DNA of 64,000 nucleotides from Eledone cirrhosa (Eukaryota). Positions 8,475-60,193 of this stretch are shown piece by piece (the first letter of the stretch is position 1; the number at the start of each line of letters is the position of its first letter). A program made the position numbers and the translations under genes. A model generated the notes under the pieces. That model was given only the letters and a program-made list of their open reading frames with translations. It had not been told where the DNA came from and made no database searches. The stretch lies in NCBI GenBank assembly GCA_964016885.1, contig OZ024765.1:1426001-1490000 (forward strand). The letters run 5' to 3'.

Positions 8475-10145
8475 GAATAAATGCTTTGAACATAGCTTTG
8501 ATTCTTGTGAATTCTATATAACTGCTCTGTAGAACAACTGAGGTTATTACATTGAGTTATTTATCTTACTGGTAATAAGGTAGTAATAAATTACTGACCT
8601 TCACTGTTTAGGGTTTAAAATATACATAACTATAAAAAGTTTTAATATATACATAACCATAAATAGTATCCTTAATATTATATATATATATATATTAAAA
8701 TAACAGATTAAAGTTTAAGCAAAGAATCGCAGCTTTCACCCTCAACGGGATCTGAAATATTTGCTCTACAGTTTTTATATATATTTATCCTTATCGAGAC
8801 CTCTTCGGATTTTAGTCTTCACATTTATTATTATTACTTTATGTATGTGTATATATATATATGTCCTTCCATCCTATCACCCAGATTCCTTGACAAACCA
8901 CCCCCCACTCACAACACAACCACCCCACCGCCACAATAAAAAATAAAAAAAAAAATAATAAACAATCACAATCCATATTTTTTTTTTTTGGAAAAATAAA
9001 TTTGAAAAAGAAAAATACTTTCATCATTTTCAACCATTTTTAAAATAATTTTAAAAAGAAAATAAAATTTCTGTATTTCTTCTTGTTTGTTTGTTTTTTG
9101 AATGATTAAAGATGGGATTAGGGTAGGGAGAAGGGGGATAAAAAAGGGGCCAGGCTTTTTGTTTTTCTTTGAATAATTAAAAAAGGGATTGAGGAGGACG
9201 AGGGGGAAAAAGAAAAAGGGGACAAGCATTTTAAGGCTTTGTTTTCTTCGACTGATTAAAGAAGGGATTTAGCAGGGGTCATGTTTTTAAGGCCTTTTTT
9301 ATTCGACTGATAAAAGAGGGGATTGAGGAGGAAGGAAAGAAAAAAGGGACATGTTTAAGGCTTTTTGTTTTCTTCGTGTAATTAAAAAAAGGATTGAGTA
9401 GGAGGAGGCAAAGAAAAAGGGGACAAGCTTTTTAAGGCTTTTTTTCTTCGAATAATTAAGAAATTGAGGAGAAGGAGTGAAAGAAAAAAAGGGACAAGCT
9501 TTTTAAGGCTTTTTGTTTTTCTTTGAATAAAAAAACAGGGGATTGAGTAGGAGAAGGAAAGAAAAAAGGGGACATGCTTTTTAAGGCTTTTTTTTTTCAT
9601 CGAATGATTAAAAAGAGGATTGCAAATAGGGGGGAAAAAAAGGGACCTGCTTTTTTCTTTGAATAATCAAACGGGGGGGGGAGGGGATTGGTGAGGAAGA
9701 AAAAAGAGGGGGACAAGCGTTTTAAGGCATATTTTGGGGGTTTGCGATTAGGGCTCCGTGACAGGCTCCACACGTCTTGGAGGTATGAGGGGACCTTTTT
9801 TGTTTATGAGGCAATGTTATATGGTCGGATGCCCTTTAAGGTGACAAACCAACCCCTTTTTATTTTTACGACACAAACACACAGGGTCAACAAACAGCAA
9901 AAAAAAAAAAATAAGAAAAATAAGAAAAAAGGGAGAGTTTTAAAAAAAAGGGAAAATTACTGTAGGGAATCAGGGAGTTGATGATAAAAGAGGCATGGCA
10001 AAAATTGGGGAAGGTTATGAAAATTAAAACAAATAAAATAAATTTTAAATAAAAATTAAATTATATCTTAAATAAAAAACAAAAAAAAAAACAAAGAAAA
10101 TAAAAAAAAATACTTTATTTCTTTTTCCTTTTTTTTTTTTCAATA

Positions 10146-10675
10146 TTAACCCTTTTAATACCAAACCCCTGATACCACCCTTGGTTCTATGATACAAAAT
10201 TGTTTAATAATTTTATGTATGAACCTTTGTTAAGTTATGTTCCAGACAACCCCGGAAAAACTGTATAGTGTAAAGTGATTTTCCATCATAATTTTATATA
10301 AGAAACTTTGTTAAGTTATGTTCCAAATCTGTCCATTTTAAAGTGTTTATATTTATCTAAAAACCTTCCATCATGATCTTATGTGAGAACCTTTGTTAAG
10401 TTATGTTCCAAATCTGTGTATTTTAAAGTGTTTATATTTATCTAAAAACCTTGCATCATGATCTTATGAGATAACCTTTGTTAAGTTATGTTCCAGCCAC
10501 CCATGGTTCTATGATACAAAACTTCTATTTTAAAATGTTTATATTTATTTAAAAACCTTCCATCATAATTTTATATAAGAACCTTTGTTAAGTTATGCTT
10601 CAAATCTGTCCATTTTAAAGTGTTTATATTAATCTAAAAACCTTGCATCATTATTTTATGTGAGAACCTTTATGA
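10146..10675. repeat. TTAA-CCCTTT MITE-end-associated degenerate tandem repeat (about 85-bp units)
   Basis: ttaacccttttaatacc start; recurring gaacctttgttaagttatgttcca. Confidence 0.6.
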
Positions 10676-11501
10676 GACATGGGGTGGTGTGTGTCCCCAC
10701 CCCATAATGGAACAGGAAGTTGTGGCAATCATGCTGTTTCCATAGGTGTACGTGTGTATGTATATAATTATTTGAATGCAGTAAAATATACATTTAGCTG
10801 GCCTCCTACAAGGTTGTATCTCATAGAAGGTTTCTAGGGTGTTTTAACGATAGGGGCCCCAGTCCCATCAGTCAGAAGTATGCCACAGCTCACACCTATG
10901 TAGGGTTTAGCTGGCCTCCAACAAGGTTGTATCTCATAGGAGGTTTCTGGGGTGTTTTAATGGCAGGTACCCCAGTCCTATCATGTTACAGCTCACACCT
11001 ATGTAGGTTTAGCTGGCCTCCTACAAAGTTGTATGTCATCGGAGGTTACTGTGTTCACTTCCACCCCAATCATGAAAAGTATTGTGAAATAAAACAGTCA
11101 GCTCAAGTTCAAAACAAGGATACATTGCATTGTCCAGCCTAGGAATTGAACCCACCCTCACATGATGCTTAGTCTAACATAACTAACCACTAAGCCCAGA
11201 CACCTTCAAATACTGTAACCATGAATATATATATGTATATATATATATTTTTTTCCTTCTTAAAATCTTTCCTTAAATTTTCTTCCACCCTAATAATAAC
11301 CCCTACTTCCTTTTCTTATTAAAAAATAATTCTAATAATTATTTAAATTTACCTAACATCTAAACATAACGGTCTTTTTCACTTTTAACGTTATCCTCAT
11401 TAGCATATTCATCTCGAGGTTTGAAGTTCTTCAGTATTCAAACAGAACTCAAAACGTTAAGTTCTAGTCTGGATATGTCACTATCTGTAAACCAACTTTT
11501 G

Positions 11502-11562
11502 TATTTTATCTGATGAGAGCATACCAAAATACTGGTACCCTTGAAATATATATAATAAAATA
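11502..11562 (+). ncRNA. Type-I hammerhead (family F5)
   Basis: tattttat-CTGATGA-gagcatacca...tggtaccctt-GAAA-tatata-TA^-ataaaata. Confidence 0.72.
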
Positions 11563-11776
11563 AATATGGTTTTATAAAGATAGTTTCCATTTATTAATAT
11601 TATTGACATTATACTCCAGAAGAAACTTGTTGAGTGCTTCTAATCTGTTATAAATTAACTTTGTTGAATAATCAACAAATTAAATAACTCATTGCTTATA
11701 TATATATATATATATATATATATGTGTGTGTGTGTGTGTGTGTTGATATGTGTATGTATATATTTATATCCAAAAC

Positions 11777-11857
11777 AATTATTTTGTCTGACGAATGAAC
11801 TGGAGGTTTCTTACAAGAATCATCCAGTATCTTGAAACCTTCGGTAATGAAATAATT
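11777..11857 (+). ncRNA. Type-I hammerhead (F8-type)
   Basis: aattattttgt-CTGACGA-...actgga...tccagt...-GAAA-cc ttc gg-TA^-atgaaataatt (11-bp stem I). Confidence 0.72.
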
Positions 11858-57823: not shown

Positions 57824-58266
57824 GTAGGAAAATGGAAAAACTCGGCGTATGGAAGCTGTTAAAACAGCAAAATACTGTCAAAGCAGTGTTGGGTAAAATA
57901 TTACCTGGAAGGATCAGCAGCTCGGTGTGAGTGGATCTGAAGGAAGGAAGAGAAGATAGGATGGAAGAATAGAATGGATGAATGAGAAGAGGTCACAAAT
58001 ATTAAAATATGTTCTTCAGATCTCAACGTCTGCAGTTTCCACGAATTAATGAGATTACTGCAAAGAATAGGAGGCTCGTAATGGAGAAATAAATATCTTT
58101 GTTCCTATAATGTTTGTGTTGGGACAGTTTTCTCTTCTTTTCTTCGAGTCAACTCACGCCTAGCTGCTCATCTCTGTCCTTCCAGGTAATATTTTACCCA
58201 ACTCCGCTGCGACGATATATTGCAATTTTAACAGCTTCCATACACCAAGTTTTTCCATTTTCCTAC
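57824..58266. mobile_element. Foldback/MITE-like element with about 110-bp imperfect inverted arms
   Basis: gtaggaaaatggaaaaact...gggtaaaatattacctggaagga versus its reverse complement at about 58150-58266. Confidence 0.6.
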
Positions 58267-58554
58267 AAATATATGTGTGTATTTATGTATAGAACAACAA
58301 ATTATTCTATGTATTATACATGCACCTTTGATGAGTTGTAGTGCACCTGAGCACTAATAATATATTTATTATATATATATATACACACACATGGGTGTGT
58401 GTGTGTGTGTGTGTGTCTCATGACTCATACACTGTTCACTTTCCTGACATTTGTACATTATTCTATGTACTATACATGCACCTTTGATGAGTTGTAGTGC
58501 ACCTGAGCACTGTATACAATAATTTCATTATTATTATCATTATTATTAAAAAAA

Positions 58555-58745
58555 GGGGATTGGCAGTATCGGTAGAGAGTCGGACGCCATGCTTTCCAGT
58601 ATAGTTACGTCCCTTTACGGTCTGAGTTCAAATCCCGCCGAGGTTTACTTTGCCTTTCATCCTTACGGGGTCGATAAAATAAAGTACCAGTAATACACTA
58701 GGTAATTGCTGGCCTTGTGCCTAAAGTAGAAACAATTATTATTAA
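58555..58745 (+). mobile_element. SINE with Meta-like central domain; further copies or tandems at about 7376-7500, 14320-14605, 54740-55222, 17980-18560 (-)
   Basis: gttcaaatcc B box followed by gcctttcatccttacggggtcgataaaataaagtaccag. Confidence 0.7.
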
Positions 58746-59390
58746 AAAAAACAGAAGTCCGGTGTAGGTAGAGAGTTAGTTCATTGTTTTACGATCGTTT
58801 CAGAGGGTGGATTGATCGATAGAGATCACTGTATCAACTAGCATGGTAGTGGTTAAGTTACTTCCCATTTCTAGTCTCGATATCCCTGTTTAATCAGCTG
58901 TCTTCTTCAGAAACACTAAATAGATTTTTACAGACAAAACCAACTGGCAGAAGATCCAGAGGAAGATGGTTGGATAACAGCCATGTGCTGAAGAATCCAT
59001 ATATATATTTATTGTATAGAAGGAGCTTCTACAAGACTAGTACTGTTTCATCTGAATGAAACAGTACTAGTCTTGTAGAAGCTCCTTCTATACAATAAAT
59101 ATATTTTACTCTGCCATGTATTGAGTACCTTACTTACTGTGGTTATCCCCGACTCAACCCGGGACCTACGTATTTATATATATATATATATATATATATA
59201 TATATATATATATATATAGGAAAATGTTCGAGACCCCGATGGCAGAGCTCAAGCCGTTTCGACGGCTTTTTCGGGACTAGTCTAGAACATTTTCCTATTA
59301 CCCACTCTCCTGCCCTAAGTATTGAGTACTCTGGTGCGTTATGGTCCACCTGGTTCCTTACCACAATTCCTTCGTTGTGTGTATATATAT

Positions 59391-59767
59391 TTTCCACCAG
59401 CGGTGCCTGCGTAAGATCCTTCATGTGTCCTGGCGCGAAACGAGGAGATCCTGCGGAGAGTCGAGTCGTGGACGCTACAGAGAGGGGTCACGGAGCGTTG
59501 GTGCCGTCTGGCTGGCTGGCTGGCTGGCCATATTCTGTGTCTGCCAAATGAACGGCATTTGAAAACAGCGATGAACTGGACTCCGCCTGTCGGTAATCGG
59601 AGGTTGCCCAAGGGTCACCTGGCGACAAAACGTTCCGGAAGGACCTGATGGCAGCCAACATCACCTGGCAGGGTCTCGAAAAAGTTGCCGCTGATCGTCA
59701 CCGTTGGCGAGTACGCACTGCTCGATGCGCCGAACGGCGCGGAAGAATCTAAGACTAAGACTAAGAC
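59391..59767 (+). mobile_element. RTE-type LINE 3' fragment, frameshifted
   Basis: FHQRCLRKILHVSW...GHILCLPNER...AADRHRWR; (CTAAGA)3 tail. Confidence 0.8.
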
Positions 59768-60193
59768 ATATATATATATATATATATATATATATATATA
59801 TATATATATATATATGTAGGAGGTGAGTTTTATTGTAGTACAATAAAGCAATGCAGATATCAGATAAGAAGCACTCTACAGTTTGTAGGACTGGAGTATA
59901 CATAATATATAAGAACAAAAGATGGTTAAAAGAGTTCCATGTATTTTATTATGCGCATTTCATTGTTCTTATATATTATGTATATATATATATATATATA
60001 TATATATATATATATATATATATGTCTTTGCGCGTAATTGTTTTTCACCGCTCCTATTAATGACGTATTATTCGTTTTTTCCCGTTCTTTGCCAGCGAAC
60101 GTTACCACGAACCAAAGTATCGTCTTCCTGTCTTCCTCCGGTTTGCAACGTTTTTTGAAATATCCAGTTCTGCGTTTACAGATTGACTTTGTT

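Follow-up and report, generated by a model that had tools for sequence, protein, structure and literature searches.

A conserved bulged hairpin at the copy ends of Hydra-clade Penelope-like elements in Eledone cirrhosa, a likely signal for the start of reverse transcription

In a 64,000-nt stretch of the genome of Eledone cirrhosa (contig OZ024765.1 of assembly GCA_964016885.1, positions 1,426,001 to 1,490,000 of the forward strand; hereafter the window), which is animal DNA rich in (TA)n and part of a 3.0-Gb genome, we identified a conserved bulged hairpin in the terminal repeats of Penelope-like elements (PLEs) of the Hydra clade, just past the sites at which element copies end. The stem is a real, covarying cis-element at the ends of this known retroelement class and, judging from the genomic copies, it likely acts as an RNA signal for where reverse transcription begins, a reading to which we give a probability of about 0.65. 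The element class, its tail and internal initiation are already known, and what is absent from the papers searched is a conserved paired signal with a UA box. The hairpin itself is not described in those papers; subscription papers on the Penelope tail and clades could bear on its novelty.

A covarying hairpin in the window and in related elements

The core of the hairpin consists of an outer helix formed by RCUC and GAGY, a 2-nt bulge on the 3' side and a covarying inner helix. The full module reads, in order, as a UA-rich box (at about -8 to -5), RCUC, the inner helix, a variable loop of 2 to about 50 nt, a UN bulge and GAGY, followed mostly by U at +3 (70/73) and +5 (66/73). The original prediction, made from the sequence of the window alone, had listed nine stem strings, and every one was found where it had been placed, except that the ninth (given as about 50770-50825, minus strand) truly spans 50780-50825 and that its closing GAGG belongs to a mutated copy, unlike the GAGC of the consensus form of its family, family I. 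The CUC/GAG helix described there stands, but the adjacent mismatch is better read as the 2-nt bulge followed by the inner helix, and the RCUCYR pattern was too narrow, missing second copies such as that at 41894-41910.

The motif occurs in the window at about ten times the chance frequency. In 30,198 repeat-masked bases the pattern was found 24 times, these being copies of about ten families and not independent events, compared with 2.41 times (maximum 7) in 200 dinucleotide shuffles; with loops of at most 20 nt there were 14 matches versus 0.74, and a control pattern with swapped halves stayed at the chance level (1 versus 0.71). Matches at 5904 (plus strand) and 20956 (minus strand) were rejected as reverse readings of family D, and those at 3932, 7382 and 27589, together with a long match at 31687, were not counted as established. 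Rfam at the gathering score returned from the window a transfer RNA (tRNA) only, and over the hairpins in 8200-12400 nothing meaningful.

An alignment of family G with 34 homologues led to 77 + 12 loci from other organisms, and the covariation set comprised 76 hairpins from 48 of these relative loci, called from sequence without a pairing rule. The first inner pair was formed in 76/76 hairpins (C-G in 47, U-A in 27 and U-G in 2; permuted mean 59.3, with 0/5000 permutations reaching 76), the second in 57/76 and the third in 52/76, so that each inner pair covaries above all 5000 permutations, in a test that ignores the tree. When one locus per sequence cluster was kept, the three pairs were formed in 56, 42 and 40 of 56 cases. 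A register test in the relatives favored the 2-nt bulge, which pairs 133 of the 152 cells for the first two inner pairs, versus 31, 45 and 42 for the alternatives. The UA box lies at -10 to -3 in 59 of 73 relative hairpins, compared with 22, 10 and 12 further upstream, and in 16 of 20 families from the E. cirrhosa genome itself, compared with 10, 6 and 3. Across those 20 families the outer pair is A-U in 12, G-C in 6 and A-C in 2; as they were chosen with a pairing rule, their first two inner pairs are circular and were excluded as evidence. Among PLEs of other taxa, the hairpin was found within 200 nt before the open reading frame (ORF) in 29 of the 57 relatives with enough sequence, the controls giving 1 on the reverse strand, 0.25 in shuffles and 2/57 in the ORF interior. 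Compensatory changes were seen among elements that are about 40% identical in protein. The families had been described as dissimilar, which holds for loops and flanks but not for descent, four of them being related through their ORFs (below). Since loops and flanks differ while the helix covaries, we attribute the pattern to selection on an ancestral signal and not to mere alignability.

Copy ends, paired hairpins and the Hydra clade

Comparison of the window with itself revealed inverted pairs in which one arm enters (TA)n just before the motif whereas the other continues through it. Ends were then mapped at 230 loci (1.40 Mb). Of 592 calls of a stop before the hairpin, 409 were dropped for want of a TA run and read as probable self-complementary probe matches; many lay at a fixed distance and on the opposite strand of real copies. 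Among the 183 TA-flanked short ends that were retained, 144 lie in the interval from 7 nt upstream of the hairpin to 2 nt inside it, at the conserved UA box; as A and T residues of the element can also match the target, these offsets are upper bounds. Copies of family F end about 3 nt upstream or about 61 nt downstream of the hairpin, and those of family G 5-6 nt upstream or 43 nt downstream, both ends being sharp in the latter; in contigs from four public runs of a single study, loose (TA)n ends occur at both of these family G positions. Of 12 informative 3' copies in the relatives, 9 stop 0-6 nt ahead of a hairpin (6 scripted and 3 by eye), in some cases the second one. Genomic copies thus have two discrete 3' ends; the region between them is the PLE tail, the optional one-sided extension described in PMC8557442, and the hairpin is its first element. 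That the hairpin marks copy ends and that it occurs in pairs are both points beyond the original prediction. A minor end of family G coincides with another TA patch, 12-13 nt ahead of the hairpin (L205, L206; window 12154). In some contigs of this family the short end is joined head to tail to a point shortly upstream of the ribozyme, about 77 nt back (L202:2251-2253 to 2175-2178); such joints may reflect template jumping to the short start site.

In 12 of 51 relatives there are two hairpins with a spacing of 55-83 nt, and of the 3 testable window families, 2 have a second hairpin beyond the long end. These are families I and H, in which it follows the long end by about 3-6 nt, as is visible in the window at 41894-41910. 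The published Hydra-1_Ajap consensus likewise begins with two copies of the hairpin, and 4 of 6 matches to 9-mers of the hairpin 3' half in the PMC8557442 supplement fall in the Hydra file; the word "hairpin" has 0 occurrences in the main and supplementary text of that paper. Head-to-head inverted pairs combined a long and a short arm in 54/61 cases versus 30.5 expected if the arms were independent, an expectation derived from the pairs' own margins in a set that included loci picked for their tailed copies. The long arm may be on either side: in clean full-length insertions of family G the tailed arm was on one side in 2 and on the other in 2 (4/4, with one further mixed case), and in family H the split was 6 and 2 among 8 two-ended loci (15 examined).

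Four window families (A, F, G and I) connect to Hydra-clade ORFs. Family G is the pseudo-long terminal repeat (pLTR) of a young element with 150 matches at 96-100% identity, including pLTR-ORF-pLTR copies. Its 758-aa frame contains YRDD and IVY..YIG and is, by motifs and homologues, a reverse transcriptase with a C-terminal GIY-YIG endonuclease; a Pfam search with a 599-aa piece of the protein gave no match. The frame has DKT at 161 in place of DKG, as do most of its relatives, RWR where RWK is expected (most aligned relatives have RWK and some RWR), a CxCX5C linker, and CxxC and CxH around the endonuclease E and N (positions 611, 711, 736 and 739). A Nematis label that we had considered for family G was dropped, the motifs fitting the Hydra clade as set out in section 11 of PMC8557442. 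The 713-aa frames of family I, many of them intact, are about 51% identical to that of G, family A joins a G-like C-terminus in 11/25 loci, and family F joins broken frames that are 29-47% like G. The ORF walks covered families other than D and E; those from families B and C, whose queries held fold-back centers, reached no ORF, and in twenty longer family A loci no 5' end was found. Family H lacks an ORF, the longest frame in its 591-nt unit having 86 codons, and occurs in tandem arrays and dispersed copies. It is very young, with 100% identical copies on several contigs, has a U3-A8 hammerhead core and keeps both hairpins. In family G the 3' untranslated region is about 2.5-3 kb and mostly TA/TG microsatellite that moves with the element, and none of the listed datasets that hold its sequence is an RNA dataset.

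These elements agree with the Hydra clade of Craig et al. 2021 (PMC8557442) in DKT, CxCX5C, CxxC and CxH, a pLTR hammerhead and (TA)n targets, the last being the insertion preference, as well as in the inverted 5'-cut copy and one-sided tail, and consensus sequences published with that paper hold the same hairpin. They differ in that tails are about 45-165 nt here versus 30-40 there and in the 3' regions and units of families G and H, which lie outside the description in its available text. The motif looks specific to the Hydra-type clade within this genome, since five PLE families with a different linker lack it; their tails begin with other hairpins. Those five, to which GIY-YIG matches in the genome had led, were called Neptune/Nematis-type by linker alone (L121, L122, L124, L127 and L137); two of them open the tail with a different shared hairpin, ACUC-GUGU..ACAC-CUC, and three show U3-A8-like cores. 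Hydra-type PLE contigs were also present inside "bacterial" genome bins (L298-L309), which is likely host DNA carried along.

Candidate roles of the hairpin

The one-sided tail and the inverted partner of PLEs have long been noted and are poorly explained, and a start signal for the reverse transcriptase would account for them. The element protein would bind the hairpin, and the nicked (TA)n target would pair over a few bases with the UA box, where copying would start and leave the hairpin uncopied. With two hairpins on one RNA, each target end could be primed at one site (twin priming): the cDNA from the downstream site would copy hairpin 1 and so acquire the tail, the other cDNA would lack it, and the two would join head to head. 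We further speculate, with somewhat less than even confidence, that such twin priming is programmed, a protein dimer on two copies of box and hairpin allowing one event to yield both the inverted copy and the one-sided tail, and that the module of about 30 nt is portable and telomerase-like and also serves ORF-less retrozyme units for borrowing the enzyme. If portable, the module would determine where reverse transcription begins on any RNA and account for the mobilization of retrozyme-like units. With a start signal that is defined and covaries, the mechanism becomes open to experiment, and the genome offers young intact frames (families G and I) along with an ORF-less passenger (family H). 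The suggestion in the original prediction that the stem is a conserved cis-element, possibly for recognition by the reverse transcriptase, fits the enrichment, the covariation and the fixed position at element ends.

PLE reverse transcriptases are close relatives of telomerase. In the 3'-tail stem-loops of long and short interspersed nuclear elements (LINEs and SINEs) and in the template alignment region of telomerase, an RNA structure or a primer-pairing patch sets the start of reverse transcription, and twin priming of L1, in which both target ends are primed, leads to inversions. The hairpin described here differs from these in lying 3' of the proposed start, in being uncopied from it and in that two sites are encoded.

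In vitro, the PLE PAc, a Poseidon element of Anolis with internal initiation in an AC-rich stem loop, begins reverse transcription from two internal positions that delimit its tail, with ribozyme cleavage unneeded (Frangieh et al. 2024, PMC11167929). It resembles the present elements in these two starts, matched here by the two discrete 3' ends of genomic copies, and in AT-rich targets; in the present elements, too, copies extend 5' beyond the predicted hammerhead cut. Inspection of the PAc RNA by eye suggests a UCUC/GAGA helix at +126 to +139, immediately downstream of the start mapped at 111-118, which is a weak likeness. PAc differs in belonging to another clade and in having neither the 2-nt bulge nor the ACU flank, and the available text of that paper defines no conserved or paired signal. 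The start site is described there as non-homologous to the target; in Hydra elements, by contrast, a UA box matching (TA)n is retained. Family H resembles the non-LTR retrozymes, non-autonomous derivatives of PLEs (PMC7229834; bioRxiv 10.64898/2026.07.22.740005), in being an ORF-less tandem unit with a predicted type I hammerhead and dispersed identical copies. It differs in showing PLE-type long and short ends at hairpins, and the available text of those papers names no cis-signal for mobilization.

Several observations weigh against a start signal of this kind. The five families with a different linker have two ends without the motif, the strict rule finds the hairpin in only about half of the relatives, and isolated hairpins fold weakly (z below -2 in 2/10), several adopting other folds. 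In the window, the register without a bulge is also above chance (13 versus 3.7, compared with 19 versus 2.98 for the 2-nt bulge). The strand bias of G-U pairs is modest, at 13:3 for inner pairs (p 0.02) and 13:6 with the outer pair (p 0.17). As to the ends, 39 of the 183 short ends lie 8-18 nt before the hairpin, 3 of the 12 informative relatives end elsewhere, and 7 of the 61 inverted pairs are not long plus short. Although its long end is sharp, young family G has only the 3' half of a second hairpin, and no second hairpin was found in read-through copies of families A, B, C, D, E and F. Finally, the UA box might just as well be where an endonuclease cuts.

The main rival, which we consider unlikely but the most serious of the alternatives, places the action of the hairpin in DNA: it would form in single-stranded element DNA, the GIY-YIG endonuclease would bind it and cut at the TA box, and resolution would make both ends. 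PMC8557442 indeed holds that the tail most likely arises from endonuclease-mediated resolution, PMC11167929 cites earlier work in which the Penelope tail was needed for endonuclease recognition, the conserved box resembles the (TA)n target, and GAGY with its 3' flank is near-palindromic. Recognition of a double-stranded sequence is, however, disfavored by loops ranging from 2 to about 50 nt and by compensatory changes, hairpin 2 lies outside the terminal copies, and a related PLE shows internal reverse transcription starts in vitro (PMC11167929). The G-U pairs, furthermore, favor the sense strand, whereas first-strand cDNA is antisense, although this evidence is weak.

A second alternative, which appears improbable, is that the hairpin directs formation of an RNA 3' end just upstream, by cleavage or by termination, from which ordinary target-primed reverse transcription would then copy. 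Ends at a fixed offset from the hairpin agree with it, as do the RNA-seq read ends at tail boundaries noted in PMC11167929, but two separately cut RNAs would not predict the excess of long-plus-short pairs (54/61), and uncut RNA was the substrate for PAc in vitro (PMC11167929).

The hairpin had been described as lying downstream of a hammerhead ribozyme and had been considered as a possible tertiary contact of it. A canonical CUGANGA..GAAA core is present upstream on the same strand at only 4/9 sites; of the other five, 1 has a U3-A8 variant core (a type documented in PMC4209133), 1 has a changed core and 3 are 5'-cut copies that keep the GAAA half only. By predicted folds, the pLTR hammerhead has a canonical core in families F and G, a U3-A8 core in A and a mostly changed core in I. 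A role as a tertiary-contact or regulatory partner of the ribozyme would suit the position of the hairpin 3' of it in the examined families, but finds no support and is very improbable given that the distance from cut to hairpin varies from 27 to over 60 nt, that a second copy lies further away, that short-ended copies retain the ribozyme and lose the hairpin, and that family I keeps two hairpins although 26/34 copies have a changed core. In that family (window 50883-50910, minus strand) CAGAAGA replaces CUGANGA in the 26/34 copies, and it may have spread with a dead ribozyme. Neutral shared ancestry or chance, which would draw on the relationship of families A, F, G and I through their ORFs, is largely refuted already by the enrichment, the compensatory changes at about 40% protein identity and the fixed position at ends, and retains almost no weight beside a start signal for reverse transcription.

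Distribution of the hairpin and other features of the window

The nine hairpins of the original prediction are each the first hairpin (hairpin 1) of a different family. On the plus strand, that of family E (8524-8557) has a G-U closing pair and belongs to the tailed arm of the inverted pair 8211-8520, the tail-less arm stopping about 3 nt ahead of the site of the hairpin; at 8433-8471 a type I hammerhead fold is predicted, with the inverted copy of its core at 8298 (minus strand). In family F the hairpin (11613-11635) follows a predicted type I hammerhead fold at 11510-11554, the long end being about 61 nt further on, and the family joins a broken Hydra-type ORF. The family G hairpin (12235-12253) stands in the pLTR of the young element with the 758-aa stop-to-stop frame, 43 nt before the long end, and the inverted tail-less arm contains a predicted hammerhead fold at 12169-12207 (minus strand). 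A long loop characterizes the hairpin of family D (20946-20995), with a predicted type I hammerhead fold at 20806-20884, while the hairpin of family A (38779-38802) is in a copy that is cut inside the hammerhead. Family C has its hairpin at 39251-39271, an inverted pair at 39037-39245 and a predicted type I hammerhead fold at 39151-39206, the core of the inverted copy being at 39131 (minus strand).

The ORF-less 591-nt unit of family H is represented by a complete insertion at 41795-42480 (plus strand), which runs from an inverted arm through the read-through, the ribozyme and hairpin 1 to a long end in (TA)n. It includes hairpin 2 (41894-41910), about 5 nt beyond the long-end position of the preceding unit, a predicted hammerhead fold with a U3-A8 core variant (42152-42239) and hairpin 1 (42320-42380); its inverted arm enters hairpin 2 by 5 nt, unlike most copies. 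On the minus strand are hairpin 1 of family B (59873-59897), in a 5'-cut copy, and that of family I (50780-50825), with its last base mutated.

Further copies of the hairpin were assigned to the same families. Those of family A are at 462-485 (with the fold-back pair 494-603), 1928-1951 and 37603-37628 on the minus strand, and at 31725-31748 (one change, in the 5' strand) and 59304-59327 (two changes) on the plus strand. Fold-back in family A copies is nearly always inside hammerhead stem II, leaving palindromes of about 110 nt without the first core half, as at 494-603, 1958-2069, 31629-31716 and 37634-37749. Additional family G hairpins lie at 59108-59126 (plus; fold-back pair 59003-59104) and 35371-35386 (minus; short deletion), an F-related one at 32839-32857 (plus) and one of family F at 38261-38281 (minus). 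Family C is found again at 6725-6745 (plus), 25546-25566 (minus) and, in decayed form, 5754-5774 (plus), family D at 8068-8117 (minus) and family B at 3096-3120 (minus; inverted pair 3132-3634).

Other repeats were noted in and around the window. A 95-bp tandem array at 4050-5153, the unit of which has CUGAUGA..GAAA, is possibly a retrozyme-like satellite, and at locus L073:773-3305 there are 422-bp tandem units with a hammerhead fold and without a hairpin of this type. A dispersed SINE-like repeat, about 340 nt long and in part tRNA-like, occurs at 51386-51719, 33448-33791, 39419-39706 and 60324-60672, the tRNA-like part corresponding to the Rfam match at 51394-51451. The 4.8-kb array at 45629-50426 has a 21-bp unit and several open frames, and is a satellite rather than evidence of a gene. 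About 50 kb beyond the window is an intronless 457-aa frame (L056:3773-5143, minus strand), which we take from the resemblance of its N-terminus to be ketoacyl synthase-like.

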